A stretch of 64,000 nt of DNA from Terriglobia bacterium (lineage in GTDB: Bacteria > Acidobacteriota > Terriglobia > 20CM-2-55-15): the NCBI GenBank assembly GCA_965218585.1, contig CBDCLE010000017.1, positions 71,470 to 135,469 on the forward strand, read 5' to 3'. Both the position numbers and the translations under genes were made by a program. Shown here piece after piece: positions 62-58,708 of this stretch (the stretch's first letter is position 1; the number at the start of each line of letters is the position of its first letter). The notes below the pieces were generated by a model. It made no database searches and was not told the origin of the DNA. It was given only the letters and a program-made list of their open reading frames with translations.

Positions 62-1023
62 CTAAAAACCCTCAAGTTCCGGTTGTCTGTATCGAAACAA
101 TCGATTGGCAACGAATCGAAGTTCGTATGGCGCTCGGTAAAAACGCGTCCGATAGCGCCAGGCGCCCAGCGCTTTCATAGCCACTGCCTGCCAGGCTTTT
201 AGTTTGATATCCGATATCGTGGGATACCTCGCGTTGAGCACTATCTCGAAGTTCTGAATCCGCCTCAGGTGTGATGTTTTCAGCCAGGGCGTTGATGGAC
301 TTTTTCTCAGATCAAACTCTTTCCATTCCGGATCCATCCACTCCTCTAGCCGGGATGGGAAGCTGAAACCGTATTCTTGCGCCATCTGAAATAATCCAGC
401 ATCGTCAAAATGCACGGGGGAATAGACATAGATGACGATTTCTGCACTCGGATTCACTTTCTTGATTTTCCGGATATACCGAATGTCACGATCGATCTGG
501 GCATCCACGTCGGCGCCCGGAGTTCCCAGCACGAATGAAAACTCCGGCACGACACCAAACTTCCCTGCCCGATCCGCGAGTTCAAGCACCATCTCCGGAG
601 TCTGCGTGCCACCTTTATTCATGTTTTCCAAGACGTCGGAAGAACTCGACTCGACGCCGAAAAACACCATCTGAAGACCGCTTCGCGACATCTGGCGCCA
701 CGTTCTGTCGGTAAACCCCATCATGGTGTCGGGGCGCGCTTCCCCCCACCACTTTAATCCTGAACCTGACAAGCGTTTCGACGAATCCTCCAGATTGGCC
801 TGTTGCTCCGGGCATTGAAGGGCAGATCGAGGTCTCCGGAACCAAACCGTTCAGCCTCGCGAATCCGCTCGAACACTTCAACGAAATTCGAATACTGTGA
901 CTCCTGCCCGGGAGTCATGAGATCCAATATACCGTCTGAATGTTTTGGACAGAATCCACAACCGCAGGCCGCATGACCGATGAGGGGTTTCCGACAGGAA
1001 GGACAACTTACGTTTACCTTCAT
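62..1023 (-). CDS. radical SAM domain protein, split into two overlapping frames (754..1023 N-terminal Cys-rich part, 62..772 C-terminal part)
   Basis: The 62..772 frame has a GVESSSSDVLENMNKG and VLGTPG segment typical of radical SAM TIM-barrel cores. The 754..1023 frame has a Cys cluster (CPSC...CGCGFC) about 100 aa upstream, where the SAM-cluster motif is expected. The two frames overlap at 754-772, implying a frameshift or indel. Confidence 0.5.
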
Positions 1024-1082: not shown

Positions 1083-2315
1083 TTACTGCGTAAAGGGCGG
1101 CACACTTGTGAATATTGAAAAATCGTTTAGGAAACGCAAGGCCACCACTGTCAAAGCGACATCGCTGAAAATCTGCATCGTGCCGCTGAGATCAGTCGTA
1201 TTGCTGAACAACTGGAATACGAACTGAGACATGTGGTTCAGGGGGGCCAGCGTCGTTGTTGTCATGTCGATGGTCTGACCCTCAGCGTTGAGCAGCGTAA
1301 ACGTGATGCTCGCCGTTTGACTCTCGGACGGGTTCGCATACGCGAACGCGGTCAGAAATCCTGCCTCGTCCACGAAAATGGACTGCGACGTGGCCGTAGA
1401 GGACGGGTCGACGCCAGCCTTAGCAATCAGAGTCGAACCGGAGAACTGGGAAAAGATAGCGCTGCCCGTCACTGCGATATCGGACGCCACCTTGGCGAAG
1501 CCCACGCCAATCGCACCCGAGGCGGCTGTTGAAACCAGTCGTCGACTTTTCCCACCCCCAAGCTCGAAGCTGATGGTTCCCGAAAACTGCTGGCCGGTGT
1601 TGTCGAGGAAGGCCGGCACGATCGTGTTGCCTTCCGAATCCCCAAAATCGTTAAACGTGATTGTAACGTTGGCAGTAGTGCTCGTCGCCCCCGGGTTCGT
1701 TATGAACAGCGTGGTCTTGAAACCACCACCGTCTGCAACATGAGGAAAGTAAAAGATCTCGTTCTGCGTGATCGTCGTGGCAGCAGAAACCGTGGTCTCG
1801 GCTGAATAAATGAAATCCCCCGATGACGCGAAGTTCCCATTGGCCGCGTTGCCGGCAACGTTGAAGCGAACATCTCCTGTGGAACTGCTCGAAGGAGATG
1901 TCCAGTCAAAGGAAAATGCAGCGGTATTGGTACCGGCTTTGGCAAAGGAATGCTCGATACCGCCCGGCGTTCCCAGATCAAGCTGGGTTCCACTACCAGC
2001 GGTAAAGGTTCCCGCATCCGCCCCGCCTGAATCAACAGCGGTCATCTGAAAGCCAAACAGGCTCTGACCCACGTGCATAACGGTAACGGTCAGTGGATAG
2101 GTCGTGCCAGGACTCCACTCCGAGGGCAACCCTCCGATCGTCACAGCTCCCGACCCAACGTTGACTGGCAGATCGTTATGGCACCCAAACGTGCTGCACG
2201 TGACGCCGTTCACCCCCGAACGATTCGACTCTGGACCAAGGGAATTACCCCATACAATTGCCGCCCAGGCGAGCAAGAGAACTGAAGCGAAAAACGACAG
2301 TCGATTCAGAGACAC
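1083..2315 (-). CDS. secreted hypothetical protein; N-terminal domain with CSTFGCH (CxxxxCH) plus two tandem ~110-aa beta-rich repeats (F-x-NP-type)
   Basis: N-terminal signal peptide (MSLNRLSFFASVLLLAWAAIVWG). The internal repeats FITNPGATSTTANVTITF and FAYANPSESQTASITFTL recur. It is a paralog of the adjacent 2513..3613 gene. Confidence 0.6.
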   Translation of the reverse strand: MSLNRLSFFASVLLLAWAAIVWGNSLGPESNRSGVNGVTCSTFGCHNDLPVNVGSGAVTIGGLPSEWSPGTTYPLTVTVMHVGQSLFGFQMTAVDSGGADAGTFTAGSGTQLDLGTPGGIEHSFAKAGTNTAAFSFDWTSPSSSSTGDVRFNVAGNAANGNFASSGDFIYSAETTVSAATTITQNEIFYFPHVADGGGFKTTLFITNPGATSTTANVTITFNDFGDSEGNTIVPAFLDNTGQQFSGTISFELGGGKSRRLVSTAASGAIGVGFAKVASDIAVTGSAIFSQFSGSTLIAKAGVDPSSTATSQSIFVDEAGFLTAFAYANPSESQTASITFTLLNAEGQTIDMTTTTLAPLNHMSQFVFQLFSNTTDLSGTMQIFSDVALTVVALRFLNDFSIFTSVPPFTQ

Positions 2316-2512
2316 CTTCTGACTTCCTCCATGTCCACCAAGAAATCTACTCCAGAACTATATCGAAAGGGCTTCCATCTGTTCCAAAGAAACGCATCGC
2401 ACCGTCGGCAGCCTGACCGGCGATACCGCTGAACAGGATCGCCTGTGTGGTCCATCCCCCACCGTCTACCAGATGCGGGAAGAACAGTTCGTTGGTCGTC
2501 GTCACGCCGCTT

Positions 2513-3613
2513 TCATTTGTCGGAGGCGTCGTTGCCCGACTGAATCGAACCTACAGCGCCCGGCTCACCGACCACCTCGACAGACGTCCTGAAGGCTGTG
2601 CCGAGTTCGGCCGGCGATATCGTCGCCTCGGAAATCGTCTGGAAATCGAGGTCCGCGTTGTCCAGAACAAGTTGGGCAATGGGCGCAACATTCCCTTCGT
2701 CCGGTACCAGCCGGAACGAACCGACTTGCGTGAGGGAAATAAAATCGGTCGCAACGAACTCTCTGAAACCTCTGGGGGCTAACGAGTACGTATGCACCCG
2801 TGCGGTGGCTCCGGTCAAAGCAATCGCGGTCGATTCCCCGAACGGCCTGAATTCCGAACCCTGGCTTATGAAGGCCATCGTGCCGGTAATTTCCTCATCG
2901 GTCGGATTGACTATGATCAACCGCGACGACCAGGGGCCGCCGAAAACGAAATGTGGCAGATACAGGGTGTCCGTCGAAGTCTCGGTGAGGTCCGCGACGG
3001 GCATACTGCTGAAGGTGAATTCCCCGGAATCTCGTAATGATTGTCTCAAAGCAACAACGGACACCGGCAGTGAGGCGGTAAACGTCAGCGCGCCTCGCGT
3101 TCCAGTCTCCGCATTGAACGGATCCTCCGATATAAACCGGGACGTCTGCTGGTTAGCCCCGACGGTAAAGGAGCCGGAACCGAAATCAATGTCTTCCCGG
3201 CGTGAATCCGAAAAAAAGAAATCGATTTGAACATCCTCGGCGTTGGGATTGACGATCGCCAGACCGGTATTGAGAATGTCTTCACTGAACGTGACGAATA
3301 CGCGGCCTCTCGTCACGAAGGGTGATGCAGCCACACCGGTCTCGGTCAAGAGCTCACCGGCGGAATTTCTAAACCCGAATATCCCGACGCCCGACGGCGT
3401 AGTACTGCCGGCGCCGGGCTGGATCCGTGTATACGTCACAGCAGGAACCGGCGCGCTCCCACTGGTTATCAGAGAAACGCCTCCGCGATCCACCATGGTA
3501 TAGGAACGTTCGGAACTGCCTGACTGCGGCATGGGCGCCACCCCCCACAGGAGGGCCCCGCCGCCAAGCAAGGCTATCACTGCCAGTACAACTACTCGAT
3601 TCACGACCACCAT
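2513..3613 (-). CDS. secreted hypothetical protein, paralog of the 1083..2315 gene (tandem beta-rich IxNP repeats)
   Basis: Signal peptide with a TM-like N-terminus (VVLAVIALLGGGALLWG). The repeats AIVNPNAEDVQIDFFF and LIIVNPTDEEITGTMAFI share their architecture with the neighbouring gene. Confidence 0.6.
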   Translation of the reverse strand: MVVVNRVVVLAVIALLGGGALLWGVAPMPQSGSSERSYTMVDRGGVSLITSGSAPVPAVTYTRIQPGAGSTTPSGVGIFGFRNSAGELLTETGVAASPFVTRGRVFVTFSEDILNTGLAIVNPNAEDVQIDFFFSDSRREDIDFGSGSFTVGANQQTSRFISEDPFNAETGTRGALTFTASLPVSVVALRQSLRDSGEFTFSSMPVADLTETSTDTLYLPHFVFGGPWSSRLIIVNPTDEEITGTMAFISQGSEFRPFGESTAIALTGATARVHTYSLAPRGFREFVATDFISLTQVGSFRLVPDEGNVAPIAQLVLDNADLDFQTISEATISPAELGTAFRTSVEVVGEPGAVGSIQSGNDASDK

Positions 3614-3708: not shown

Positions 3709-4413
3709 TCAGGGTTTCCGCGTCGGCCGCATGACAACTTCACTGATGAAGCTGTTGGCCTCGGCGGCCACCAGCATTCGGACGGCATGGGCCACGTCCC
3801 CCGGCTGCAACATGCGTTCTCTGGATTTCCCCTCCGTTTCCTTGGGCGAAAACGTCGTATTGGTTGAACCCGGACAAAGGACAGACACACGAACCCCGTG
3901 TTCACGCACCTCCTGGTAGAGCGCTTCTGAAAATCCAACGACGCCAAACTTGGACGCACAATAAAGGGCGCGGCCGGCTGATCCAACCTTGCCGGCAATC
4001 GAAGCGATGTTGATGATGTGCCCCCGTTCCCTTTCCTTCATCTGCGGCAGGACGAATCGGCAAGTGAGGAAGAGTCCCTTGAGGTTGGTATCGATGACGC
4101 GATCGAAATCGTCCAATACAGACTCGGTCACCTCACCGAAGTGGTAGACACCTGCTGAATTCACCAGAACGTCAGCGGGACCCAAATGCCTCTCGGCCTG
4201 TTCGAAGGCCTGCTGAACTTCACTCTCAACTCGCAAGTCCGCAGGAAGGACCATCGAACCCGGCACCTCGGCCGAGGTCTCCTCCAACTCGGATCGCGTG
4301 CGCGAAACCAGGACCACGCGCATCCCCAGTCGGCCCAGTTCGACGGCAACGGCCCTGCCGATCCCTCGGCCCGCGCCTGTCACTATCGCAACTTGATTTT
4401 CCAACGAAATCAT
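3709..4413 (-). CDS. SDR family oxidoreductase (short-chain dehydrogenase/reductase)
   Basis: VAIVTGAGRGIG Rossmann motif, NSAG, and the catalytic YCASK (YxxxK). The internal Met at 4413 is preferred over the upstream ORF start at 4455. Confidence 0.85.
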   Translation of the reverse strand: MISLENQVAIVTGAGRGIGRAVAVELGRLGMRVVLVSRTRSELEETSAEVPGSMVLPADLRVESEVQQAFEQAERHLGPADVLVNSAGVYHFGEVTESVLDDFDRVIDTNLKGLFLTCRFVLPQMKERERGHIINIASIAGKVGSAGRALYCASKFGVVGFSEALYQEVREHGVRVSVLCPGSTNTTFSPKETEGKSRERMLQPGDVAHAVRMLVAAEANSFISEVVMRPTRKP

Positions 4414-4565
4414 AGAACTAACCACCGGGGCGCAGAGACATAGAACACACCGCAAAGACGCTTAGACGCAAAGGACCTTGATTCGATTTCCCCAGCGTTC
4501 TTCTTGGCGCCTTTGCGGTGAAAATCCGTCTCTCTGCCTTCGTGCCTCTGTGGTTCATAGTCTCT

Positions 4566-6347
4566 CTAGTCACCTTGAACCGTTGCGAGCTCCTGCTCCT
4601 TGTACTGCAACTGATAGAGTTTGAAATACAGTCCTCTCTGGGCGAGAAGTTCCTGATGGGAGCCGATCTCCCGGATCCGTCCCGTGTGCATGACGATAAT
4701 TTTGTCACACCGTTGGATCGTCGACAGCCGGTGCGCGATGATTATCGACGTCCGTCCACGCATCAGTCGTTCGATCGCCCTTCCGATCTGGCCTTCGGTC
4801 TCCGTATCCACGCTTGAGGTCGCCTCGTCCAAAATCAGGATCTCCGGATCGTGTGCGAGGGCACGAGCAAAAGCGAGGAGCTGTCGCTGTCCAACGGATA
4901 AGGTGGTCCCCCGCTCGTTGACGGGGTGTTCCAGGCCCTTTTCAAGTGAACGGATGAAAGGCCCCAGATTCACGTCTTCGGTTGCCTGTCGAATTTTTTC
5001 CGTTGATATGTCGGAACCGAGCCGAATGTTGGACTCCAGAGTTCCGGAAAACACGAATACATCCTGCAATACAACGGCAAACCGACGGCGCATGTCGTCC
5101 AGATCCATAGTTGAAATATCGACACTGTCGAGCAGGATGCGGCCCTTCTGGATATCGTAGAAACGCGTCAGAAGACTGGTCACGGTTGTCTTCCCCGCAC
5201 CCGTGTGGCCGACAATCGCAACGGACTCGCTTTGCCGGACACTGAACGAGAGATCTTTCAGTACCCAATCCTCGTCGTTGTAAGCAAACCAGACATCCTG
5301 AAATTCGATCTCTCCTCGAGCTTCGGCGATCGCGCTTGGTGTGGGAGGAGAAAGAACCGTCGGGGCGGTGTCGAGCAGTCTGAAGATCCGTTCGGAACTG
5401 GCCATGGCCGACTGCAGGATGTTGTATTTTTCACTGAGGTCCGCGATGGGACGAAAAAACCGCTGCGAATACTGAATGAAGGCGATCAGGGCTCCCAGGG
5501 TGAGAATACCGGTCAGGACCTGTCCCCCACCGTACCAGATGATCAGCGCAATCGCTGTCGCGCTCAGAAGTTCGACGATGGGATAGAAGATTGCGTAGGC
5601 CATGATGGAATCGAGGTTCGCCTGCAGGTGCTCACGGTTGATGAGGTCGAACCTCTCGGCGCTCTTGCGCTCACGGTTGTAGAGCTGAACCACGCTCATC
5701 CCCGTAATGTGTTCGTGGAGGAAGGCGTTGATTTTCGCGATCGCGATCCGGACACGGCGGTAACCGTCTCTCGCCTTCATCCGGAAAATTGCAGTGGTCA
5801 CGCCGATAAACGGGACGATTGCCAGGACGATCAGGCCCAGACGCCAGTCCAGAACCAGCAGCACGATCATGATGCCGGTCAGAGTAAATATGTCTCCAAA
5901 AACGGAGACGATACCGGCGGAGAACATTTCATTGAGAACATCGACGTCCGTCGTAACGCGCGTGATAAGGCGCCCGACAGGATTGCGATCGAAGAAGCTG
6001 TTCGAGAGGCTCTGGATGTGGTTGAAGATCTGGCGCCTCATATCGAACATGATTCGCTGTCCCGTACTCTGGAGCGTGTAGGTCTGAAGGAAACCAATGC
6101 CATACTTCACTACGAGCAGACCAAAGTAAGCCGAAGCAATCAGCGAGAGCCCACCCATGTTGCCTTGAAGGATGTAGCGATCCACGGCGATCATCGTCAG
6201 CCACGGAAAACTGATTTCAATCAGCGACTCCACCATGATGAGAAGAAACGCGAACAGCACTATCTTGCGGTACGGCAGAAGGTAGACCATCAGCCGCCGC
6301 ATGAGCCGGGAGTCGTATGCTTTGCCTAGTACTTCTTCTTCCTGCAT
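4566..6347 (-). CDS. ABC transporter permease/ATP-binding protein (type I exporter half-transporter, MsbA/LmrCD-like)
   Basis: Six-TM N-terminal domain, Walker A GHTGAGKTT, signature LSVGQRQLLAFARAL, Walker B ILILDEATSSVD. Confidence 0.9.
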   Translation of the reverse strand: MQEEEVLGKAYDSRLMRRLMVYLLPYRKIVLFAFLLIMVESLIEISFPWLTMIAVDRYILQGNMGGLSLIASAYFGLLVVKYGIGFLQTYTLQSTGQRIMFDMRRQIFNHIQSLSNSFFDRNPVGRLITRVTTDVDVLNEMFSAGIVSVFGDIFTLTGIMIVLLVLDWRLGLIVLAIVPFIGVTTAIFRMKARDGYRRVRIAIAKINAFLHEHITGMSVVQLYNRERKSAERFDLINREHLQANLDSIMAYAIFYPIVELLSATAIALIIWYGGGQVLTGILTLGALIAFIQYSQRFFRPIADLSEKYNILQSAMASSERIFRLLDTAPTVLSPPTPSAIAEARGEIEFQDVWFAYNDEDWVLKDLSFSVRQSESVAIVGHTGAGKTTVTSLLTRFYDIQKGRILLDSVDISTMDLDDMRRRFAVVLQDVFVFSGTLESNIRLGSDISTEKIRQATEDVNLGPFIRSLEKGLEHPVNERGTTLSVGQRQLLAFARALAHDPEILILDEATSSVDTETEGQIGRAIERLMRGRTSIIIAHRLSTIQRCDKIIVMHTGRIREIGSHQELLAQRGLYFKLYQLQYKEQELATVQGD

Positions 6348-6415
6348 CTAACCTGCCGCTCTACTTTCCAGAATAGATCTTGCAATTCCCTGCATCTCAT
6401 CCGCTTCAAGAAACA

Positions 6416-8173
6416 TCATTCCGCTACGTCCAGTTCGTCTTCCAGAAGCTGGCGTTGATGGAGTTCGGCGTACTGCCCTTCAAGCGCCAGCAGTTGATCA
6501 TGAGTACCCCTCTCGACGATCTCCCCGCCGTCGAGAACTACGATTTCGTCCGCACCCTTGACGGTCGATACGCGATGGCTGATCAGGAGTGAAGTCCGGT
6601 CCTGCATCACGGTTCTCAGTTCGTCGAGGATCTGCTCTTCGGTATACGTGTCTACGCTCGACAACGCGTCGTCGAGAATGAGAATCCTGGGGTCTCGAAC
6701 CACGGCCCGGGATATTGCCGTCCGCTGCTTCTGCCCACCAGACAAGGTGATGCCACGTTCACCAACCAAAGTCTCAAAGCGTTTAGGAAACTGGTCTATA
6801 TCCTCGTATATGTTAGATATATGAGCTGCCTTCTCAACCTTAGCCTCAGATACTTCATCCACTCCAAAGGCGATGTTTTCAAAGATTGTCTCGCCGAACA
6901 GGAACGTGTCCTGGGGAATGAAACCGATCGAACGCCGGAGACGCTCGAGGGGAAACCGCTCTATAGGAATCCCGTCGACAAAGATCGACTTTTCGGGCGC
7001 GTTGTACAGGCGCGGGATAAGTTGCGCCAGAGTGGATTTTCCTGCACCTGTCGAACCCACAATCGCCAGCGTCTTGCCCTGGGGAATGGTCAGGGAAACA
7101 TCCCGCAGCACGGGCGTGCCGTTGTAAGCAAAGCTGAGGTTGCGCAGTTCAATTTCTCCCCGGATCTCGTTGTCCACACAGTCGGGCGAGTCTGCGATCT
7201 CGGGAACCGCATCGAGTATGTAGTTCAACCGCCTCATCGACGCCCGACCGCGTTCCAACAGGTTGACCACCCAACCCAACGCGATCATTGGAAAGGCCAG
7301 CATGCCCAGGTATACCGTGAACGCGACGAAGTCTCCCAGGGTGATAATTCCAGAGACGACCTGCCTTCCCCCAAACCAGATGACGGCGACCGTCGCAAAT
7401 CCAATCGTGAACTGCATCGTGGGGTAGAACAGACTGGTCACACGGATCAAATCCATGTTCTTGTCCTGCAAGCTATGGTTCAGCCCGTCGAACTCGGCTT
7501 TCTCGTGCTCCTCCTGCACGAAGACCTTTACGACACGGATCCCGGACAAGCTTTCCTGTACGCGGGCACTGAGGCTGGCCAGGCGCTGCTGCGATTCCTC
7601 GCTCAGGACATGGATGCGCGAACCGAATTGGCGCACACCGTAAGAAATCAGCGGCAGAGGAAGCAACGCCACGAGCGTCAACCTCCAGTCGATACTCAAC
7701 ATCAATCCAATGGCAATCGTCGTGGTGAGGACCGTATTCGCCGTGTACATGATTCCGGGACCGAGCAACATACGCACATTACTCAAATCGTTCGTCGCCC
7801 GCGACATGAGGTCCCCGGTAAAACTTTTCTGGAAGAACGAGAGTTCAAGCTTCTCCATGTGCGCGAACACGTCGCTCCGCAGGTGGTACTCGATCCGGCG
7901 GGAGACCCCGATCATGAGCCACCTCATGAGAAACCGGGAGATACCCTGGAAGACGGTCAGTCCGACGATCAGTCCGGCATACAAGAGGAGCCTGTCGCGG
8001 GTAATCTCCTCGCTGAGGCTGTCGATGCCATACCGGATGACCCAGGGGTTAGCCAGCGAGAAGGCCGACGTGGCGACGACACAGACCAACCCCGCCATCA
8101 TCCTGGACTTATATCTTTTGAGATAAACGATTAACCGGGATAAAGTACTGGTTTGGGACCTTTCGAGGGGCAT
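6416..8173 (-). CDS. ABC transporter permease/ATP-binding protein, partner half-transporter of a heterodimeric exporter
   Basis: Walker A GSTGAGKST, signature LSGGQKQRTAISRAV, Walker B ILILDDALSSVD. It lies 69 nt upstream of the second half-transporter gene on the same strand. Confidence 0.9.
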   Translation of the reverse strand: MPLERSQTSTLSRLIVYLKRYKSRMMAGLVCVVATSAFSLANPWVIRYGIDSLSEEITRDRLLLYAGLIVGLTVFQGISRFLMRWLMIGVSRRIEYHLRSDVFAHMEKLELSFFQKSFTGDLMSRATNDLSNVRMLLGPGIMYTANTVLTTTIAIGLMLSIDWRLTLVALLPLPLISYGVRQFGSRIHVLSEESQQRLASLSARVQESLSGIRVVKVFVQEEHEKAEFDGLNHSLQDKNMDLIRVTSLFYPTMQFTIGFATVAVIWFGGRQVVSGIITLGDFVAFTVYLGMLAFPMIALGWVVNLLERGRASMRRLNYILDAVPEIADSPDCVDNEIRGEIELRNLSFAYNGTPVLRDVSLTIPQGKTLAIVGSTGAGKSTLAQLIPRLYNAPEKSIFVDGIPIERFPLERLRRSIGFIPQDTFLFGETIFENIAFGVDEVSEAKVEKAAHISNIYEDIDQFPKRFETLVGERGITLSGGQKQRTAISRAVVRDPRILILDDALSSVDTYTEEQILDELRTVMQDRTSLLISHRVSTVKGADEIVVLDGGEIVERGTHDQLLALEGQYAELHQRQLLEDELDVAE

Positions 8174-8376: not shown

Positions 8377-9741
8377 GAGGTCGTTCCAATCGGTGTGTAA
8401 AAAGAGAAGGCGGTGTACGCTTTCGGTGAATCCGAAACCCTAAGCAATCCCGGCAGCAACCGGGAGAAAGGTACACCACCCATGAAGAAGAAGAACATAC
8501 CGGCATCAGTGGCGTCAACGAACGCGTATGAAGGTTTGGAGGACTGGGCGCGATCCCGGGTCCAAGTCTGGCTACAGGAGCTGCTCGAGGACGAAGTCAC
8601 TCAATTTCTGGGTCGGGAAAAGTCGGAGCGGAGTCCGAATCGACGAGGATACCGGAACGGTCACGGGAAGCCGCGACGCTTCGCAATGATGAACGGTACG
8701 ATGGAGGTTCGACGACCTCGGGTTCGAAACACCGCCGAGCGGTTCGAGAGTCAGATCCTGCCGTATTTTCGACGGAAATCGAAACAGCTGGGCGAGCTAC
8801 TTCCCGATCTCTACCTCCACGGTCTGGCCACAGGGGACTTCGAGCAGGCCATGCGCGGACTGCTTGGCGCTGGCGCTCCGTTGTCGCGAGCATCGATCCA
8901 ACGACTGAAATCGACCTGGCAGTTGGAGTATGACGAGTGGGTCCAGCAGGACCTGTCCGGCCTCGAGGTCGTGTACCAGTGGGCAGACAGCTTGTACGTG
9001 AAAGCGGGGATCGCGAAAGAGCGAGCGGCATTGCGGGTGATCATCGGAGCCTTGTCAGACGGGCGCAAAGTGGTGTTGGCCTGTGAGAGCGGGCAGCGGG
9101 AAAGCAAGGAGTCCTGGAGCCGCATTCTGCGCAATCTCCAGAGACGGGGCCTGAAGCTGGGACGGCTGACTGTCGCGGACGGTCACCTGGGCATCTGGTC
9201 CGCGCTGGCCGAGCAACAGCCCCAGGGCCAGGAACAACGCTGCTGGAACCACAAGTCGATCAACGTGGTCGATCATCTGCCGAAGACCGAGCAGCCCGCG
9301 GCCAGACAGCTGCTCCATGGGATGGCCTTCGCGAACTCCCGCGCGGCCTGCGAACGAAAGCGGGATCAGTTCGTCCGCCGATATGAGAAGAACTATCCCA
9401 AAGCGGGTGAGACGCTGTTGCGGGACTGGGACCGGATGATTACTTTCTATGAGTTCCCGAAACAACACTGGGTGCATCTGAGAACAACCAACATCGTCGA
9501 ATCGCCTTTCGACATGGTTCGCCTCCGTACCAACGCCGCTCGCCGATTCAAGCGTGTCGAGAATGCAACGGCAATGATCTGGAAGCTACTACGTGTCGCT
9601 GAGAAGGCTTGGCGACACTTAAAAGGATCCGAACTCTTACAAGAGGTCTATGATGGTCAGCAATTCGCTGACGGCATCAGAGTCGTGATGAAATCGAAGG
9701 CCGCCGCCTGATGACTTTTACACACCTTTTGTAATGACCTC
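8377..9741 (+). mobile_element. IS256-family insertion sequence, complete copy (1365 bp) with imperfect terminal IRs and an 8-bp target-site duplication GGATGAGG
   Basis: IRL GAGGTCGTTCCAATCGGTGTGTAAAAAG versus the reverse complement of IRR GAGGTCATTACAAAAGGTGTGTAAAAG (about 22/26 identical). GGATGAGG occurs at 8369-8376 and again at 9742-9749. The element encodes an IS256/mutator-type transposase. Confidence 0.85.
8482..9711 (+). CDS. IS256-family transposase
   Basis: Typical C-terminal IS256 motifs (DRMITFYEFPKQHWVHLRTTNIVESPF). It is about 99% identical to the transposase at 56901..58130. The MKKK start at 8482 is preferred to the upstream extension at 8413. Confidence 0.9.
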   Translation: MKKKNIPASVASTNAYEGLEDWARSRVQVWLQELLEDEVTQFLGREKSERSPNRRGYRNGHGKPRRFAMMNGTMEVRRPRVRNTAERFESQILPYFRRKSKQLGELLPDLYLHGLATGDFEQAMRGLLGAGAPLSRASIQRLKSTWQLEYDEWVQQDLSGLEVVYQWADSLYVKAGIAKERAALRVIIGALSDGRKVVLACESGQRESKESWSRILRNLQRRGLKLGRLTVADGHLGIWSALAEQQPQGQEQRCWNHKSINVVDHLPKTEQPAARQLLHGMAFANSRAACERKRDQFVRRYEKNYPKAGETLLRDWDRMITFYEFPKQHWVHLRTTNIVESPFDMVRLRTNAARRFKRVENATAMIWKLLRVAEKAWRHLKGSELLQEVYDGQQFADGIRVVMKSKAAA

Positions 9742-10333: not shown

Positions 10334-10972
10334 ATGCTTAGCTACTTCAAAGGATTCAGGCATCTGAGGGCCAAAGAGTTCATGACCCTTCTCGATGGTC
10401 TCGACCTGGGGGGGGATCGCCGAACCCACCTCCGAGAGTGTGCCAACTGCAGAACGACTCTGGCTTCGATCGCAGAATTGGGGCAGGACATATCGGAATC
10501 CGAGGGCGTGGACGCTGATACCACCCACGCGGCGGTCGCGAATGCGGACTGGGTTCGGCTGCGTTCTTCAGTCAGGGACCGACTGCTTGCACGTGCCGTC
10601 AAGCGTGATTCGGTTCTGCAGCGATGGACAGGGTGGACCGGCCTGCCGACCCCGGTCTGGAGCCTCGCTCTCCTGGCCCTTGTTACCGGGATGGCCGTTG
10701 GTGGATTTTGGCAATATCAGACAGTTCAGCTGACGGATGAAATAACGGAGATTTCGTCGAACGAAGGCGTAAACTTGTCTTCGACCGAGTCCGGCTCCGA
10801 GTTCGGGCTGTTTCCCGGGGACGCCGAAATCATCGAGGCGGAAGCTCTGGCCTGGTCCCAGACCGAGATCTTCACTTCCCTGAACGAACTGGAATCGGGT
10901 GAAGAAGATGTGCTCCGGGAGCTGATTTCCCTGGCTTTTGCCGAAGCTTCGATCTTTGACGAGTCGAGGTAA
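10334..10972 (+). CDS. zinc-binding anti-sigma factor (ZAS-type, single TM)
   Basis: HLRECANCR (HxxxCxxC) motif at the N-terminus, a TM helix VWSLALLALVTGMAVGGFW, and an acidic periplasmic tail. It lies immediately downstream of the ECF sigma gene. Confidence 0.75.
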   Translation: MLSYFKGFRHLRAKEFMTLLDGLDLGGDRRTHLRECANCRTTLASIAELGQDISESEGVDADTTHAAVANADWVRLRSSVRDRLLARAVKRDSVLQRWTGWTGLPTPVWSLALLALVTGMAVGGFWQYQTVQLTDEITEISSNEGVNLSSTESGSEFGLFPGDAEIIEAEALAWSQTEIFTSLNELESGEEDVLRELISLAFAEASIFDESR

Positions 10973-10988: not shown

Positions 10989-11552
10989 ATGAAAGTTCTA
11001 TCCATCGCCATAATGACGCTGACCATGCTCGTCGGGACGGGTCTGTCAGCGCAGTCGTCCCGGGAAGGTCCGGTCATCCTGAAGGTTCGGCCACAGCAAA
11101 GATCCGGACAGGGGAGAAACCTGCGCGCTCCGGATGTCGCATCAATCCAGGAAGTCATTGAGGGTTTCTACGTCAGCCGTTTTCAGATGGAACTGGAACT
11201 GGACGATGAACAGTTCGCGCGGGTGCTTCCGAGGCTGAGAAACTCGCTGAGGGAATGGAATGAGGCAGGACAGAGACATGCTCGAGCGCTCAATCAGCTA
11301 CGACAGGCGATGCGAGCCAATGCTCCTGACGACGAGATTGCCCGGCGAATCGAAGAAATAGACGAAAGCGACATCGCCCTGCGGGCCATCCAGGAAAACC
11401 TGTTGCGTTCGGTCGATCCCGACCTGTCTCCCCGGCAGCGTGCCCGCCTGCGCATCGTCCAGCCCAACCTTGAAGAGCGGATCCGAAATATGATCGAGCG
11501 TTCCCGCGGCCGCCCCCCTCAACCCCCGCGTCCCCCCCAACCTCCTCGATAA
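10989..11552 (+). CDS. secreted/periplasmic hypothetical protein (possible Spy/CpxP-like LTxxQ-type helical protein) with a Pro-rich C-terminus
   Basis: Signal peptide MKVLSIAIMTLTMLVGTGLSAQS, Arg/Glu-rich helical repeats, a PRQRARLRIVQPNLEE motif and a PPQPPRPPQPPR tail. It is the third gene of the sigma/anti-sigma module. Confidence 0.45.
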   Translation: MKVLSIAIMTLTMLVGTGLSAQSSREGPVILKVRPQQRSGQGRNLRAPDVASIQEVIEGFYVSRFQMELELDDEQFARVLPRLRNSLREWNEAGQRHARALNQLRQAMRANAPDDEIARRIEEIDESDIALRAIQENLLRSVDPDLSPRQRARLRIVQPNLEERIRNMIERSRGRPPQPPRPPQPPR

Positions 11553-49820: not shown

Positions 49821-52268
49821 CTATCGCAAGCGATCGGCAATCCCCTCCACGGTTGTGACCAGTTCTCGAAATCTGGTCTGTGTGGCGCCACTTCGACCGT
49901 CGCCCTCCTGGGCAAGCGCCCCAGCCACTGTTTCGAGTTGGTCCGCCACCGCGCGGTCGTTCCCCCCACTCGCCAGCGCATTTTCGGCGCCGTCGAGCGC
50001 GGCGGTCAGCGCTCCTGCCTGCGCCGCTGAAACGACGTTACTTCGGAGGAGCTGGTCCAGATACGCCCGTGCGACCACTGGCTCGGCCGGCCAGGTGTTC
50101 CGCCGTTGTGTCTGTGCGTTGACCACAGCATCCGGGTCCCTGAGCGATGCCGCTGCTATTTCGTTTTCGGTCAGATAATCGCTGGGGACCAGGGCCAACA
50201 CATCGAGACCGCGTGCGATTTCGGTGCCATAGATGAATCCACCGAACCAGTAGGCTGACCAATACCCACCCATGACAAGGTCATCGCCATTGATCGGACC
50301 ACGGTCAAAAAAGGCGATTTCGACCGGGTTCGCGGAGTCGGTAAAATCGATGACCGATATGCCTCCCTGGTACCAGGCCTGAACGAAAATGTCCCGACCG
50401 GGGACGGGTATGAGCGAGCCATTGTGAGCCACACAGTTTTCCTGGTCGCTCTGTGGCGCCGCCATCTTGTAGTGGCTCCGAAACTGCAACCGTCCATTGA
50501 CGATGTCGTAGATTGCATCCGCACCCCAATCCAACGGATCGGACGCGCGGCAACGCGGGCGGCCCCCGCCTCCCCATTCATCGGTAAAAAGCACTTTGGT
50601 TCCATCGTTGTTGAAAGTCGCGGAGTGCCAGTAGGCAAAGCCGGGATCGACCACCTGATCCAAACGGACCGGATTCACCGGATCGCTGATATCAAGAAGG
50701 ATTCCGTTGCCAGAGCAGGCACCGGCGGCCAGGCCAATCTCGGGGAAAGTCGTGATGTCGTGGCACTGATTGGTCAACCGTGTGGTCTGTGTGCCCTCCC
50801 CGTGATCGCCGCCTTCCCACAAACCTGCGATAACCCCCGAATTCGGGTCCGAGAATATGCGGGGGCGATTGATGATGCGGGCCTCCGCGGGTCGCGCCAC
50901 AGGAATCTCGATCACGTCGATACTGAACAGTGCGGTCTCGGCATCTTCAAAGGGTGATTCGTCTGAACAACCGTCGAGCTCCTCACTGGAACGGACCGAG
51001 CCGGTTCCTGACCCATAGACGTAGATGATTCCTTCATCGTCAGGGTCAGTCACGATGGTATGGGTATGGGAACCCCGGCAGGTCTGAACCGCCCCAACCT
51101 GACGAGGCGCTCGCAAGTCGCTGATGTCGAAGATTCGGATACCCCGGAAGCGATCTTCGCTTTCCGGTTCGGCGACTCCCTCGAGGCCACAGTCGAGCCG
51201 CCCCCTGGTTTGCTCGGCCGAATATATCAGGAGATTTCCGACTACCGACACATCGCCCTGTCCGCCCGGGCATACGACCGAACCAAGCAGCTCGGGTGAA
51301 CTTGGATTCACGATGTCGTAGGCATTGAATCCGTGATAATTCCCTGCAATGACGACATCACCTGCAAAGGCCAGGTCACTGTTGGCAAAGTTAAGGAGGC
51401 TGGGCCGTACCTGATCCTCTTCTTCGCCGTCCTCGGCCTCCGCACCCGGCGGTCTACGGGGTACACCCTCGGGGTTTTCCGGATCGAAGAACCCATTCGG
51501 CTTGGGAAGGGCGATGACCAGTTCCATGTTCAGAGAAGCCTGACCCGCATCGTCGAATCCAGCCGCCAGATTGACTCTCGGGTCGGGAGAGAAGCCTGCC
51601 AGCATGGCGTTCATGCGGTCGATTTCACTCGTCTGGTCCGAGGTGATGTCCGATGTAAATGCGAACAGCACCGAGTCCTGTGCCGAGCCTTGTTGATCAA
51701 GGAGATTCTCGACCATCGTCAGGGCGCCTGCGTGATGCTTGATCATGAGTTCAAGAAACAACGAGTCAAACTCAAATCCGTCGGCTTGCTCCAGCTGTTC
51801 TAACTCCTCGTTGGTCAGCATTCCCGGCATCAATCGAAATCCTGGAGCCTGATGAGCATCCTCGGCAGTCACGACGAGGCCCCGGTCACGCAACCAGCCC
51901 TGCATCATGTCGATTTCATCCTCCTGCGAGAGTTCTATGCGCTCGGACAGAAGTTGCATGACTTCGCGGTTACTCCGCTCCTCAACCAGGACAGTCATCT
52001 CCAAAGCCTGGGCATGATGGGAGATCATCCCTTGCATGAACCTCGCGTCGGCCTCGGTAAACTGGATGCTCGCCAGGTCTCCGGCCTCTTCGGCCGAAAT
52101 CTTCCGGCTCGCTTCCCCGGGTGCACCAGGCTGAATGATCGGTGCCTGGGCGGAGCTTTCCGTGACGGCGAACAGACCCAGGGCGGTGATGACTGCTATG
52201 TGAGCAGCCAGACGAAATACGAAGGACGGCAGGCAAGTCATAAGGTTCTCTCCAACAGGGTTTTTCAT
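49821..52268 (-). CDS. large secreted multidomain protein: tandem DUF305 (HHxxA four-helix metal-binding) domains + beta-propeller-like repeats + C-terminal Ala-rich helical domain
   Basis: Signal peptide. MISHHAQALEM and MIKHHAGALTM (DUF305 signature, twice). A long Gly/Asp-rich beta region follows. The C-terminus is AYLDQLLRSNVVSAAQAGALTAALDGAENALASGG (FIMAH-like). Confidence 0.55.
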   Translation of the reverse strand: MKNPVGENLMTCLPSFVFRLAAHIAVITALGLFAVTESSAQAPIIQPGAPGEASRKISAEEAGDLASIQFTEADARFMQGMISHHAQALEMTVLVEERSNREVMQLLSERIELSQEDEIDMMQGWLRDRGLVVTAEDAHQAPGFRLMPGMLTNEELEQLEQADGFEFDSLFLELMIKHHAGALTMVENLLDQQGSAQDSVLFAFTSDITSDQTSEIDRMNAMLAGFSPDPRVNLAAGFDDAGQASLNMELVIALPKPNGFFDPENPEGVPRRPPGAEAEDGEEEDQVRPSLLNFANSDLAFAGDVVIAGNYHGFNAYDIVNPSSPELLGSVVCPGGQGDVSVVGNLLIYSAEQTRGRLDCGLEGVAEPESEDRFRGIRIFDISDLRAPRQVGAVQTCRGSHTHTIVTDPDDEGIIYVYGSGTGSVRSSEELDGCSDESPFEDAETALFSIDVIEIPVARPAEARIINRPRIFSDPNSGVIAGLWEGGDHGEGTQTTRLTNQCHDITTFPEIGLAAGACSGNGILLDISDPVNPVRLDQVVDPGFAYWHSATFNNDGTKVLFTDEWGGGGRPRCRASDPLDWGADAIYDIVNGRLQFRSHYKMAAPQSDQENCVAHNGSLIPVPGRDIFVQAWYQGGISVIDFTDSANPVEIAFFDRGPINGDDLVMGGYWSAYWFGGFIYGTEIARGLDVLALVPSDYLTENEIAAASLRDPDAVVNAQTQRRNTWPAEPVVARAYLDQLLRSNVVSAAQAGALTAALDGAENALASGGNDRAVADQLETVAGALAQEGDGRSGATQTRFRELVTTVEGIADRLR

Positions 52269-52395
52269 CATGGAATTCTTCGAAAGACGCATTTGCACCG
52301 GGGCACCGCGATGTATTGCGATAAATTGCATCCCAGTCAAAGATTGAGACAAAGCGTCGGGATCCGGTTCATGTAATCACGAGCCGCCTGGGCTT

Positions 52396-53547
52396 TTAAT
52401 CGGCCGGTTCCAGGCGAACCACAGACGTCGTCTCGCCACCGCGATCGTCGATGGCCACGTAGATGTAACCGTCGGGTCCCTGGTGGAGGTCCCGGATACG
52501 GCCGTTTCCGTGAAAGAGCGTCTCCTCATGAACGACACTCGTGTCTTCGGTGACAAGGCGCGCGATCTGTTCGCCTGCCATACCGCCTGCGAACATGTTC
52601 CCTTTCCACTCAGGAAAGCGGTCGCCGGTATAAACCATCAGGCCAGAAGTGGCGATTGACGGAACCCAGACATGTACGGGTGACTCCATGCCCTCGCGCC
52701 GCGTACCCTCGTGAATCGCCAGGCCGCTCCCATAGTTGACGCCGTAACCGATGACCGGCCAACCGTAGTTCAAGCCCCTCTGCACCAGATTGAGTTCGTC
52801 GCCACCCTGCGGTCCGTGCTCGGTAATCCAGACGTCGCCGGTCTCGGGGTGGACGACCAGCCCCTGAGGATTGCGGTGCCCGTAGCTCCAGATCTCGGGA
52901 CGTGCGCCGGGGGTATCGACAAAGGGATTGTCCGACGGAACACGCCCGTCGTCATGCAACCTGACGACCACCCCGTGATGGTTCGAAATGTCCTGGGCGG
53001 GATGCGCCATAAGGTCGCCCGTTGCCGGGGCCTGACGCTCACCAACGGTGATGAAAAGGTAGCCGTCACCGTCGAAAGCAAGCCGCGAACCGTAATGCCC
53101 GCGTCCGCGCGATGCGGCCTCGAAAATCTCCTCGACGTTTGTCAGGCGATCATCTTCGAGGCGGCCGCGCACGACAGCCGTGGTCGACTCACCCTCGGGC
53201 AGTGGCTTTGAGAAGCTCAGGTAGAGCATCTGGTTCGATGCAAAGTCGGGATGGAGCGCTATGTCGAGCAGCCCGCCCTGTCCCTGGGCGAAGACTTCCG
53301 GAACACCGGCCACGGGATCGGCAAGGAGTTGCCCGTACCGGACGATTCGCAGCCGGCCGGGACGTTCGGAGATCAGGATGTCTCCGTCAGCAAGCGCCGC
53401 GACCGACCACGGGTTCAAGAGACCCTCCGCCACGGTGACGACGCGATAATCGTGGTCGGTTGACCGCATGAGGGGTGATTGGGCAAACGCCTGTGTCACG
53501 GCGACGAACACGAAAAGCGTCGCCAGTGCCCAGAATGTACGACTCAT
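52396..53547 (-). CDS. PQQ-dependent sugar dehydrogenase (soluble aldose sugar dehydrogenase YliI-like)
   Basis: Signal peptide, 6-bladed propeller motifs, and characteristic GLLNPWSVAAL, HHGVVVRL and YGHRNPQGL segments. Confidence 0.75.
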   Translation of the reverse strand: MSRTFWALATLFVFVAVTQAFAQSPLMRSTDHDYRVVTVAEGLLNPWSVAALADGDILISERPGRLRIVRYGQLLADPVAGVPEVFAQGQGGLLDIALHPDFASNQMLYLSFSKPLPEGESTTAVVRGRLEDDRLTNVEEIFEAASRGRGHYGSRLAFDGDGYLFITVGERQAPATGDLMAHPAQDISNHHGVVVRLHDDGRVPSDNPFVDTPGARPEIWSYGHRNPQGLVVHPETGDVWITEHGPQGGDELNLVQRGLNYGWPVIGYGVNYGSGLAIHEGTRREGMESPVHVWVPSIATSGLMVYTGDRFPEWKGNMFAGGMAGEQIARLVTEDTSVVHEETLFHGNGRIRDLHQGPDGYIYVAIDDRGGETTSVVRLEPAD

Positions 53548-53773
53548 GAAGATCTCCTTTTGGCCGTTGGGCCTCGTGACTCGGATGGAAGGGACCAAAC
53601 CTATCCCCTCCAGGGGACTCGCCTACCTTGAACTACGCCGGGAGCAAAGCCCCAATAGCTTATATCACCACGAATCTGTTGCAAATCAGGAATCGACCCG
53701 GGCCCTCAGATCGTTCTTCGCTTCTCCAGCGCTGTGTGCGGATGGGAGACACGATGTCGTGGTTCCACAGACT

Positions 53774-56870: not shown

Positions 56871-58147
56871 GAGGTCATTACAAAAGGTGTGTAAAAGTCA
56901 TCAGGCGGCGGCCTTCGATTTCATCACGACTCTGATGCCGTCAGCGAATTGCTGGCCATCATAGACCTCTTGTAAGAGTTCGGATCCTTTTAAGTGTCGC
57001 CAAGCCTTCTCAGCGACACGTAGTAGCTTCCAGATCATTGCCGTTGCATTCTCGACACGCTTGAATCGGCGAGCGGCGTTGGTGCGGAGACGAACCATGT
57101 CGAAGGGCGATTCGACGATGTTGGTCGTTCTCAGATGCACCCAGTGTTGTTTCGGGAACTCATAGAAAGTAATCATCCGGTCCCAGTCCCGCAACAGCGT
57201 CTCACCCGCTTTGGGATAGTTCTTCTCATATCGGCGGACGAACTGATCCCGCTTTCGTTCGCAGGCCGCGCGGGAGTTCGCGAAGGCCATCCCATGAAGC
57301 AGCTGTCTGGCCGCGGGCTGCTCGGTCTTCGGCAGATGATCGACCACGTTGATCGACTTGTGGTTCCAGCAGCGTTGTTCCTGGCCCTGGGGCTGTTGCT
57401 CGGCCAGCGCGGACCAGATGCCCAGGTGACCGTCCGCGACAGTCAGCCGTCCCAGCTTCAGGCCCCGTCTCTGGAGATTGCGCAGAATGCGGCTCCAGGA
57501 CTCCTTGCTTTCCCGCTGCCCGCTCTCACAGGCCAACAGCACTTTGCGCCCGTCTGACAAGGCTCCGATGATCACCAGCAATGCCGCTCGCTCTTTCGCG
57601 ATCCCCGCTTTCACGTACAAGCCGTCTGCCCACTGGTACACGACCTCGAGGCCGGACAGGTCCTGCTGGACCCACTCGTCATACTCCAACTGCCAGGTCG
57701 ATTTCAGTCGTTGGATCGATGCTCGCGACAACGGAGCGCCAGCGCCAAGCAGTCCGCGCATGGCCTGCTCGAAGTCCCCTGTGGCCAGACCGTGGAGGTA
57801 GAGATCGGGAAGTAGCTCGCCCAGCTGTTTCGATTTCCGTCGAAAATACGGCAGGATCTGACTCTCGAACCGCTCGGCGGTGTTTCGAACCCGAGGTCGT
57901 CGAACCTCCATCGTACCGTTCATCATTGCGAAGCGTCGCGGCTTCCCGTGACCGTTCCGGTATCCTCGTCGATTCGGACTCCGCTCCAACTTTTCCCGAC
58001 CCAGAAATTGAGTGACTTCGTCCTCGAGCAGCTCCTGTAGCCAGACTTGGACCCGGGATCGCGCCCAGTCCTCCAAACCTTCATACGCGTTCGTTGACGC
58101 CACTGATGCCGGTATGTCCTTCTTCTTCATGGGTGGTGTACCTTTCT
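56871..58147 (-). mobile_element. IS256-family element, second copy (inverted relative to copy 1), missing about 88 bp of its left end including IRL
   Basis: Right end GAGGTCATTACAAAAGGTGTGTAAAAG is identical to copy 1. Identity to copy 1 stops 20 nt upstream of the transposase ATG (at 58147). No target duplication can be assessed. Confidence 0.8.
56901..58130 (-). CDS. IS256-family transposase (copy 2, ~99% aa identity to 8482..9711)
   Basis: Same protein as copy 1, with about 5 substitutions (e.g. EKSERS>EKLERS, ADSLYVK>ADGLYVK). Confidence 0.9.
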   Translation of the reverse strand: MKKKDIPASVASTNAYEGLEDWARSRVQVWLQELLEDEVTQFLGREKLERSPNRRGYRNGHGKPRRFAMMNGTMEVRRPRVRNTAERFESQILPYFRRKSKQLGELLPDLYLHGLATGDFEQAMRGLLGAGAPLSRASIQRLKSTWQLEYDEWVQQDLSGLEVVYQWADGLYVKAGIAKERAALLVIIGALSDGRKVLLACESGQRESKESWSRILRNLQRRGLKLGRLTVADGHLGIWSALAEQQPQGQEQRCWNHKSINVVDHLPKTEQPAARQLLHGMAFANSRAACERKRDQFVRRYEKNYPKAGETLLRDWDRMITFYEFPKQHWVHLRTTNIVESPFDMVRLRTNAARRFKRVENATAMIWKLLRVAEKAWRHLKGSELLQEVYDGQQFADGIRVVMKSKAAA

Positions 58148-58708
58148 TGCCCGCAACCAATCGATAACGAAAGGATCCCCGGACCCGGGCGGCAAGATGT
58201 CGCTGGTGCTGTCAATCCTGCTGTTTCCGGCAAAGAACATCAGCTTGTTGGGCTGAGTGCTGGTTGGCAAAGGCGCAAACCACTGGTCACAAACGGCGAA
58301 CTCGTTTGCCAGAAACGTTGTGATGGGCACGGCGCCCGGCCGTTGGAATCCCATCACTTCGGGTTCGGTCGGGTCAGGGATCTCGAAGCCTCTCTCTTGG
58401 GCATACTCGAAGTACGAACGGGCAAAGCCGTTCATACTGTGACCGTTGCCGCTTTTCGCAAGCTGGACGGCGATTCTCTCCCGTGCGTGTGGCGCATCGC
58501 CCGGCAACCACTTGTCTCCTGCTTCGAAGGGAAAGAACGACTTGCTGCCAAACCGATTCTCGTAGTCGGAGCGCTCAAGCGGGCGATGCAATCCGTTGAC
58601 GTCCCTGCCGAGGTCGTAGCTGAGGTGTCCCAGCATGTGGTCGAAGGAGCGGTCTTCGAACATCAGATAGACGATCGTGTCAACGAGTCTGGGGTCTGTC
58701 ATGAGCAC
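58148..58708 (-). pseudogene. phosphoesterase family protein (PlcC/AcpA-type phospholipase C/acid phosphatase) N-terminal fragment, 3'-truncated at the IS copy 2 boundary
   Basis: N-terminal motif TIVYLMFEDRSFDHMLGHL is typical of Pfam phosphoesterase (PF04185). Only about 185 aa remain before the IS sequence, whereas full-length members are 500-700 aa. Confidence 0.65.

Follow-up and report, generated by a model that had tools for sequence, protein, structure and literature searches.

Among c-type cytochromes, the large domain of cytochrome f (2JXM, 4OGQ, 1HCZ; PF16639) is built as a beta-sandwich, with the N-terminal amino group as its distal haem ligand, and it is one of several described systems to be compared here with two neighbouring genes, termed A and B, that lie at positions 1083-3613 of a 64,000-nucleotide stretch of DNA from a Terriglobia bacterium (Acidobacteriota), the whole of which we refer to as the window. 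A further such system is the Reeler domain, represented by F-spondin (2ZOT, 2ZOU, 3COO); the eukaryotic Reeler domain is not known to have a cofactor. There are also proteins in which haem or redox domains are joined to other modules: the fungal cellobiose-dehydrogenase-type cytochrome domain is fused to a cellulose-binding module, and ferric-chelate reductase 1 combines Reeler, DOMON and cytochrome b561 domains. Natural haem-c attachment motifs vary in their Cys-Cys spacing, a variation that would be unexpected of a structural disulfide. Finally, the ASRAH superfamily, with TM1070 (1NC7) and ASRT (2II7; the sensory rhodopsin transducer of Anabaena), consists of eight-stranded sandwiches in which a nearly invariant Asn ends strand 2 and modules occur in pairs or fours, TM1070 and ASRT forming tetramers; sugar binding has been predicted at a cleft shaped by the pair interface, and a secreted actinobacterial branch has been linked to a glycosyltransferase (De Souza, Iyer and Aravind 2009, PMC2739507).

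Here, we show that protein A consists of an N-terminal domain of the NCBIfam ‘choice-of-anchor V’ family followed by two modules with the ASRT fold, and that protein B is built from modules of the same kind. The two genes form a co-oriented, probably co-transcribed pair, and their products are likely to be exported cell-envelope proteins. Our main reading, to which we assign a probability of roughly 0.6, is that the N-terminal domain of A carries a covalent haem at a Cys-Cys-His motif. All conclusions on A and B are drawn from sequence and predicted structure only, and it is on this basis that we infer haem attachment, sugar binding and surface localisation. In the mechanism we propose, the C-x4-C-H motif just after the signal-peptide cleavage site would receive covalent haem in the periplasm, H46 would act as the proximal ligand, and the haem would rest at the sandwich edge, in the manner of cytochrome f. 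The clefts between paired modules of A and B would bind sugars. On this view, A would be a single-haem redox protein, tethered to glycan and located at the cell surface or in the periplasm, and B would be its all-module partner.

An exported beta-sandwich domain with an invariant Cys-Cys-His motif

The features of gene A, in window positions, are as follows.

1083..2315, minus strand: gene A, 410 amino acids (aa), GTG start (open reading frame (ORF) call, family scan, model)
2247..2315, minus strand: predicted signal peptide, A residues 1-23 (MSLNR, a hydrophobic helix, then VWG; helix in the model, conserved N-termini of homologues)
1776..2246, minus strand: choice-of-anchor V / Reeler-like beta-sandwich domain, A residues 24-180
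2178..2198, minus strand: C40-S-T-F-G-C45-H46, candidate covalent haem-c attachment motif, Cx4CH variant (conservation)
1950..1952, minus strand: H122, a second conserved His, at the ‘E-H’ position (invariant in close relatives)
1410..1769, minus strand: alpha-type ASRT-fold module, A residues 183-302 (FYFPHVADGGGFKTTLFITNP…)
1086..1409, minus strand: beta-type ASRT-fold module, A residues 303-410 (…FLTAFAYANPS…VVALRF…; hhalign)

A GGAGGA ribosome-binding site lies 9-14 nt before the start of gene A, and a homologue of equal length (P0001) is 96% identical to the protein. In agreement with the signal peptides assigned to both proteins in a preliminary description of this DNA, the structure models contain an N-terminal hydrophobic, signal-like helix (residues 2-23 of A and 4-19 of a B-like protein). 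B begins MVVVNR…LWG, and in A as in B a short charged stretch precedes the hydrophobic helix. This start is unusually alike in the A (residues 1-23) and B (residues 1-26) families and their homologues, reading M-x-x-N-R followed by a helix that ends W-G/A, which hints at a common export or processing route.

NCBIfam NF041895 (choice-of-anchor V) matches residues 14-173 of A with 91.8 bits against a cut-off of 42 (expectation value, E, 4.3e-26). The Pfam Reeler model (PF02014) gives 21.2-23 bits against a cut-off of 21, a borderline score above threshold, and matches 25 of 33 family members with a best E of 2.4e-8. The profile of the N-domain family has the F-spondin reeler domain as its sole match among Protein Data Bank (PDB) sequences (E 1e-4), and a Foldseek search with the AlphaFold2 model of A (predicted local distance difference test, pLDDT, 91.8) ranks the F-spondin reeler domain (2ZOT) first (E 3e-6). 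Together these results establish the fold and family of the domain. The preliminary description had called the family not recognisable; for the N-terminal domain the NF041895 and borderline Reeler matches replace that statement, and it stands for the repeat modules in so far as they have no family match at the level of sequence. No function or cofactor is attached to the NF041895 name in the libraries searched. Pfam and NCBIfam also gave no match on A to a sorting or anchoring signal at the C-terminus, such as PEP-CTERM or a type IX secretion tail; the protein ends in its two ASRT-fold modules.

The family to which this domain belongs is very large. A profile search of 1.84 billion representatives returned 8,989 proteins at E <= 1e-3, these being clusters at 50% identity, and 6,452 at E <= 1e-10. 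In 142 representatives the domain starts at residues 21-98, nearly always directly behind the signal peptide. Besides the motif, G88, F89, G102, W138, P141, the AGNAANG segment, D167 and Y170 are invariant or nearly so.

The CSTFGCH motif pointed out in the preliminary description is present at residues 40-46 of A, and its conservation across homologues is far more than would be expected by chance. C-x(n)-C-H occurs in all 245 complete relatives (103 + 142), aligned to one column shortly behind the signal peptide, with a spacing of 2, 3 or 4 residues in 243 of them and two outliers matched as x5 and x6. Among the 120 listed homologues of A, 81 have the x4 form, 22 x2, 1 x3 and 1 x5; one further homologue, matched as x6, contains an inner x2 motif (CNGCH), and the 14 without the motif are N-terminally cut fragments or short paralogues that lack the domain. 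The 142 diverse representatives all possess the motif (CxxCH in 98, Cx3CH in 9, Cx4CH in 35), its first Cys falling at a median position of 45. Neither the two Cys nor the His shows any exception in 107 aligned domains or in 143 of 143 representatives; the His directly follows the second Cys throughout, and the spacing between the Cys residues is variable. Since CxxCH is the majority form across the wider family, the Cx4CH of the window is a subfamily variant of a mostly canonical haem-c attachment motif. An alignment of homologues had been suggested as the check on this motif, with loss of the Cys and His as the outcome that would speak against it; the alignment instead finds these residues conserved. 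Among the options raised at that stage (haem c, a metal site or a disulfide), haem c is favoured over a structural disulfide or a fixed metal site because the Cys-His pair is strictly adjacent, the Cys-Cys spacing varies between 2, 3 and 4, and the proteins are all exported.

Two alternating types of ASRT-fold module

The modules that follow the N-terminal domain of A, and those that make up B, display the eight-stranded beta-sandwich topology of TM1070/ASRT (ASRAH), a fold that can now be assigned to repeats formerly regarded as not recognisable. Self-BLAST detected no internal repeats in A or B, and the module types were resolved by profile comparison only. The proposed paralogy of A and B is weak by plain BLASTP (E 8e-5) and clear by profile comparison: using hhalign, module 1 of A matches module b of B at E 2.5e-13, and module 2 of A matches modules a and c of B at E 1.2e-18 and 1.3e-16, respectively. 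With P0121 serving as the intact B sequence, the modules group as follows.

Alpha type: A 183-302; P0121 213-335 (within-type E 2.5e-13)
Beta type: A 303-410; P0121 97-206 and 336-453 (within-type E 1e-16 to 1e-31)

Profile matches between the alpha and beta types reach only E 0.004-0.26, and the part they have in common is essentially strand 2 with its Asn turn. By these comparisons the modules fall into two distinct, alternating types, and A carries one alpha-beta pair. The internal repeats of the preliminary description are borne out to the extent that four ‘x-N-P’ segments, corresponding to the strand-2 Asn turn, could be located (N207 and N328 in A; N122 and N236 in B, the latter two at least 90% conserved). 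They do not, however, mark two copies of one ~110-aa unit, but an alpha and a beta type.

The link to the ASRT superfamily in sequence searches is only indirect. Relatives of A and B weakly match Pfam PF18986 (DUF5719) over profile positions 48-131 with both module types (E 1e-6 to 1e-8); A and B themselves lie below any DUF5719 threshold, and Pfam and NCBIfam scans of B gave nothing. We infer that DUF5719 is identical to the actinobacterial ASRAH lipoproteins described previously (PMC2739507). The strand-1 Trp of ASRT is not kept in the modules, in which strand 1 starts with F, Y or L (FYFPH, LYLPH, RVFVTF), and the conserved Trp, W228 of B, stands at the start of strand 2.

Architecture of intact B

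Gene B and its parts, including a remnant that lies beyond the present reading frame, are located as follows.

2513..3613, minus strand: gene B in its window form (366 aa), truncated from a protein of 508-512 aa
3323..3523, minus strand: B residues 31-97, C-terminal half (five strands) of a split alpha-type module (hhalign)
2996..3325, minus strand: B residues 97-206, beta-type module a (…NTGLAIVNPN…; profile comparison; N122 nearly invariant)
2609..2977, minus strand: B residues 213-335, alpha-type module b (LYLPHFVFGGPWSSRLIIVNPT…; profile comparison; W228 and N236 nearly invariant)
2534..2608, minus strand: B residues 336-360, first 25 residues of beta-type module c, cut at the deletion junction 2534/2535
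2350..2547, minus strand: out-of-frame remnant of the last 66 B codons (…ELFFPHLVDGGGWTTQAILFSG…DIVLE), N-terminal half of the split alpha module (tblastn)

When the C-terminal 49 residues of P0121 are combined with its residues 31-97 they constitute a full alpha module, which aligns with module b over 114 columns (E 2e-31) and with module 1 of A (E 5e-14); in line with this, columns 65-120 of A module 1 align to B residues 31-97 (E 1.7e-8, hhalign). As the permuted alpha module is complete, intact B can be read as half-alpha, beta, alpha, beta, half-alpha, its two termini each supplying part of the module that closes the body. At the sequence level, intact B (508-512 aa) is thus a circularly permuted (alpha-beta)x2 tetrad, and the model of a B-like protein (predicted template modelling score, pTM, 0.88) is consistent with a closed, compact four-module body.

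The same building blocks recur in other combinations. In P0047, P0054 and P0068 (660-680 aa), the domain with the candidate haem motif is joined directly to a B-like four-module body, and one such gene, in locus L093 (8001..10040), takes the position of B and A within this neighbourhood and follows a Toast_rack_N protein. In addition, paralogues of 295 aa (P0030, P0034, P0035) comprise a signal peptide and one alpha-beta pair that is 60-70% identical to the pair of A; each is found on a contig with a full-length A homologue, and none occurs in this window.

Haem attachment and its alternatives

The N-terminal signal-like helix of A and its homologues points to the export that haem attachment calls for, and the motif geometry described above argues for haem c. 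The main alternative, which we consider doubtful, is that the Cys-Cys-His motif forms a non-haem site, either a disulfide loop with a neighbouring His or a Cu, Zn or Fe site composed of C40, C45, H46 and H122 (or Gln), the domain being a metal-binding or purely structural adhesin head. H122 is invariant among close relatives; across the wider family this position is occupied by His in 85% and by Gln in 15% (22 of 143 representatives), a variation more typical of a hydrogen-bonding residue or a weak metal ligand than of a haem axial ligand. The fusion partners of the family are of the adhesion type, and the eukaryotic Reeler domain is not known to bind a cofactor. Against such a site stand the Cys-Cys spacing of 2, 3 or 4 residues and the strict Cys-His adjacency, a combination uncommon in disulfides or metal sites of fixed geometry but typical of haem c; the canonical CxxCH predominates in the family, and its members are all exported. 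No change compensating for Gln at position 122 was found in the family alignment, and H122 was therefore dropped as a candidate for an obligatory distal haem ligand. The haem may be five-coordinate or ligated by the N-terminal amine.

Several findings weigh against our interpretation of A as a glycan-tethered haem protein. The family has no invariant distal ligand and no conserved Met (Y170 is 98% conserved), and in the model, confidence is lowest around the motif (pLDDT 70-87), where regular secondary structure is absent. Among 20 large window ORFs, none was seen to be a cytochrome c maturation gene. Proteins fused to the N-domain family contribute adhesion or immunoglobulin-type domains and varied anchors, with no redox partner domain found among them, and across the family these partners and anchors say ‘surface’ rather than ‘redox’. 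No source annotates these proteins as cytochromes, and the literature searched, a limited collection, contains nothing to connect haem or cytochrome f with the Reeler domains of bacteria or with choice-of-anchor V domains. On the side of the modules, none of six isolated modules gave a Pfam match at E <= 10, whether to ASRT (PF07100) or to any other family, the profile of the B family finds only a spurious YceI match among PDB sequences, and sugar binding by ASRAH domains is itself a published prediction only. Two statistical results on cytochrome f, which belong with these points, are given next.

A has a fold of the cytochrome f large-domain type with a candidate haem motif at its N-terminal side. 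The cytochrome f query was checked against the PDB, where it proved nearly identical to spinach and turnip cytochrome f; a protein search for cytochrome f gave only plant sequences (86-94% identity), and a more diverse profile was built as a 35-sequence non-redundant alignment from metagenome loci. Using hhalign, the N-domain family aligns collinearly with cytochrome f over 119-123 columns, pairing CxxCH with CANCH, GF with GF, and AP..V.F..GN..G with AP..VHF..GGNRGRG, so that the haem motif lies N-terminal to the first strand in both. The score is nevertheless not significant (E 0.085-0.2, probability <1%), and 14 of 200 column shuffles reached it. In keeping with this, no family member matched the Pfam cytochrome f models (PF16639/PF01333, Apocytochr_F) even at E <= 10, and cytochrome f is absent from the Foldseek top 50 of A. 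The B-like model lacks the N-terminal domain and has neither cytochrome f nor F-spondin among its top 60 structure matches; the match to cytochrome f therefore belongs to the N-terminal domain of A. Given the non-significant profile score, the resemblance is structural and positional. Homology of the domain to cytochrome f is, on these alignments, possible but unproven, and we think it unlikely that it is a true homologue of the large domain, representing long-missing bacterial relatives, rather than a Reeler domain with an independently acquired haem motif. We regard as distinctly unlikely a further proposal, in which A and B are structural or matrix proteins (an S-layer or exopolysaccharide scaffold), the modules mediate protein-protein assembly and the N-terminal domain has no redox role. 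It would fit the compact tetrad model, the tetrameric state of TM1070 and ASRT (PMC2739507) and the occurrence of the modules behind many unrelated N-terminal domains (NHL, SBBP, LRR, FG-GAP, peptidase S41), but it leaves the invariant Cys-Cys-His unexplained, and a neighbourhood rich in glycosyltransferase, Wzy_C and modification enzymes fits a glycan ligand instead. We retain covalent haem at the motif of A as the preferred reading.

A deletion in the window copy of B

Relatives of B at 91-94% identity are 510-512 aa long. Compared with a contig that is 91-94% identical, the window lacks 266 bp at 2534/2535, which shifts the frame so that the ORF stops at 2513. At 2350..2547, the final 66 B codons are still present, undecayed but in another frame (85% identity to P0121 residues 445-510 by tblastn). 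Both ORFs of the preliminary description are real, at 1083..2315 and 2513..3613 on the same strand, whereas the truncation of B had been missed. The product encoded in the window is most likely non-functional: module c and the chain-closing strands are gone and, if the deletion is real, the protein should not fold.

From sequence comparison, the deletion is either strain-specific or an assembly error. The latter, with the organism itself possessing an intact 508-aa B, is a real possibility, though not the explanation towards which we lean. A contig that is 99.9% identical over 5 kb (L094) carries exactly such an intact gene, and the out-of-frame remnant shows no decay. A truncated 366-aa product is, however, on record on a separate 269-kb contig (NCBI, ENA), no long repeat that could cause a collapse is present at the junction, and an additional 6-bp indel beside the junction makes the window and the L094 contig distinct sequences.

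Gene neighbourhood

Upstream of B, the window contains the following genes.

3709..4455, minus strand: short-chain dehydrogenase gene, conserved neighbourhood (Pfam adh_short E 1e-57; synteny)
4566..8173, minus strand: two ATP-binding cassette (ABC) exporter genes, 4566..6347 and 6416..8173 (ORFs; ABC_membrane and ABC_tran in the syntenic genes of loci L001, L002 and L093)

Comparison of related loci shows that gene order is conserved. Several lineages have in common an extracytoplasmic function sigma factor gene, two ABC exporters, the short-chain dehydrogenase, B, A, methyltransferases, B12-binding radical S-adenosylmethionine (SAM) genes and glycosyltransferase/Wzy_C genes; one relative, with 53% identity, lies outside this neighbourhood. 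The gap between B and A measures 31-92 nt in two relatives (L002, L001), and in the window the B remnant ends 34 nt before A.

The flanks of the pair vary between loci. In L001 and L002, and at 10929..16858 of L093, the A homologue is followed by genes for B12-binding radical-SAM proteins, SAM methyltransferases, a sulfotransferase, Wzy_C and GT4/GT87 proteins, which in Terriglobia could form a lipid or exopolysaccharide modification cluster. At about position 777, the window lacks 3.7 kb present at 11540..15230 of L002 (91-94% identical), comprising a methyltransferase gene, one B12-radical-SAM gene and part of a second; because L094 also has this gap, it represents a lineage difference. The ORF at 62..772 is the C-terminal remainder of a radical-SAM gene. 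In L001 (4766..7219), an 817-aa protein with a CHRD domain, which is also beta-rich, lies between the ABC exporters and the dehydrogenase.

The remaining window consists of housekeeping genes and three Mutator-family (IS256-like) transposase genes (8413..9711, 56901..58160 and 62033..63325); a transposase copy of this family is also found beside the same gene cluster in L001 and L093. In an 843-aa protein (49821..52352), residues 102-251 match DUF305 and some 590 others have no Pfam match at E <= 1e-5; its gene adjoins a glucose/sorbosone dehydrogenase gene (52396..53598).

Significance

Both kinds of domain have been described before. The apparent novelty lies in predicting haem for a very large family, in a geometry resembling that of cytochrome f, and in the alternation of alpha and beta modules with its permuted tetrad. 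The most far-reaching version of this proposal, which taken as a whole we judge to be a long shot, is that the choice-of-anchor V domain (~9,000 clusters at 50% identity) constitutes a very large and so far unrecognised family of single-haem c-type cytochromes with a beta-sandwich fold at the cell surface, related to the cytochrome f large domain as its first known relatives and tethered in Terriglobia to a glycan-binding ASRT-fold scaffold. Should the motif indeed bear haem, thousands of proteins named only ‘choice-of-anchor V domain’ or ‘hypothetical’ would be redox proteins on the surfaces of soil and sediment bacteria such as Acidobacteriota and Bacteroidota. This would matter for electron transfer outside the cell, the chemistry of iron and the oxidative breakdown of polymers. 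They would also form a second class of beta-sandwich c-type cytochromes beside cytochrome f, the origin of which would become a testable question. With the alpha-beta modules, the TM1070/ASRT superfamily grows to include a large set of proteins secreted by acidobacteria, among them a permuted four-module form.

Comparison with known systems

Like TM1070 and ASRT, the modules of A and B have an Asn that closes strand 2 and occur in pairs or fours, and secreted versions are found near glycosyltransferase genes. They differ from the ASRT-like family in that neither the strand-1 Trp nor the His/Cys pocket residues are kept, and from ASRAH proteins in having two diverged types in fixed alternation and, in the B family, a circular permutation that splits one module between the chain ends.

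The N-terminal domain of A likewise combines familiar and distinct traits. With the NF041895 and Reeler families it shares the beta-sandwich fold and the placement directly after the signal peptide, and the family motifs GF, W-x-A-P, AGNAANG and GD-x-IY are all found in A. Unlike A, the eukaryotic Reeler domain has neither the N-terminal Cys-x(n)-Cys-His segment nor the ‘E-H’ His, and other NF041895 members end in PEP-CTERM-like, secretion-tail-like, dockerin-like or transmembrane tails. The cytochrome f large domain is a beta-sandwich c-type cytochrome, as we propose for A, and its CxxCH is found ~20 residues beyond the point of signal-peptide cleavage, immediately ahead of the first strand, as in the A family. 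A, however, has no small domain and no C-terminal membrane anchor, continuing after residue 180 with its two ASRT-fold modules, and is not part of a b6f complex.

A comparison may also be drawn with the carbohydrate-binding cytochromes of the cellobiose-dehydrogenase type and with ferric-chelate reductase 1, in which, as is proposed for A, a glycan-binding or surface module accompanies a beta-sandwich haem or redox-associated domain. In those proteins haem b is bound non-covalently within another fold, or else in a membrane domain, and their haem site is not homologous to the one proposed for A; the likeness is one of functional analogy only.

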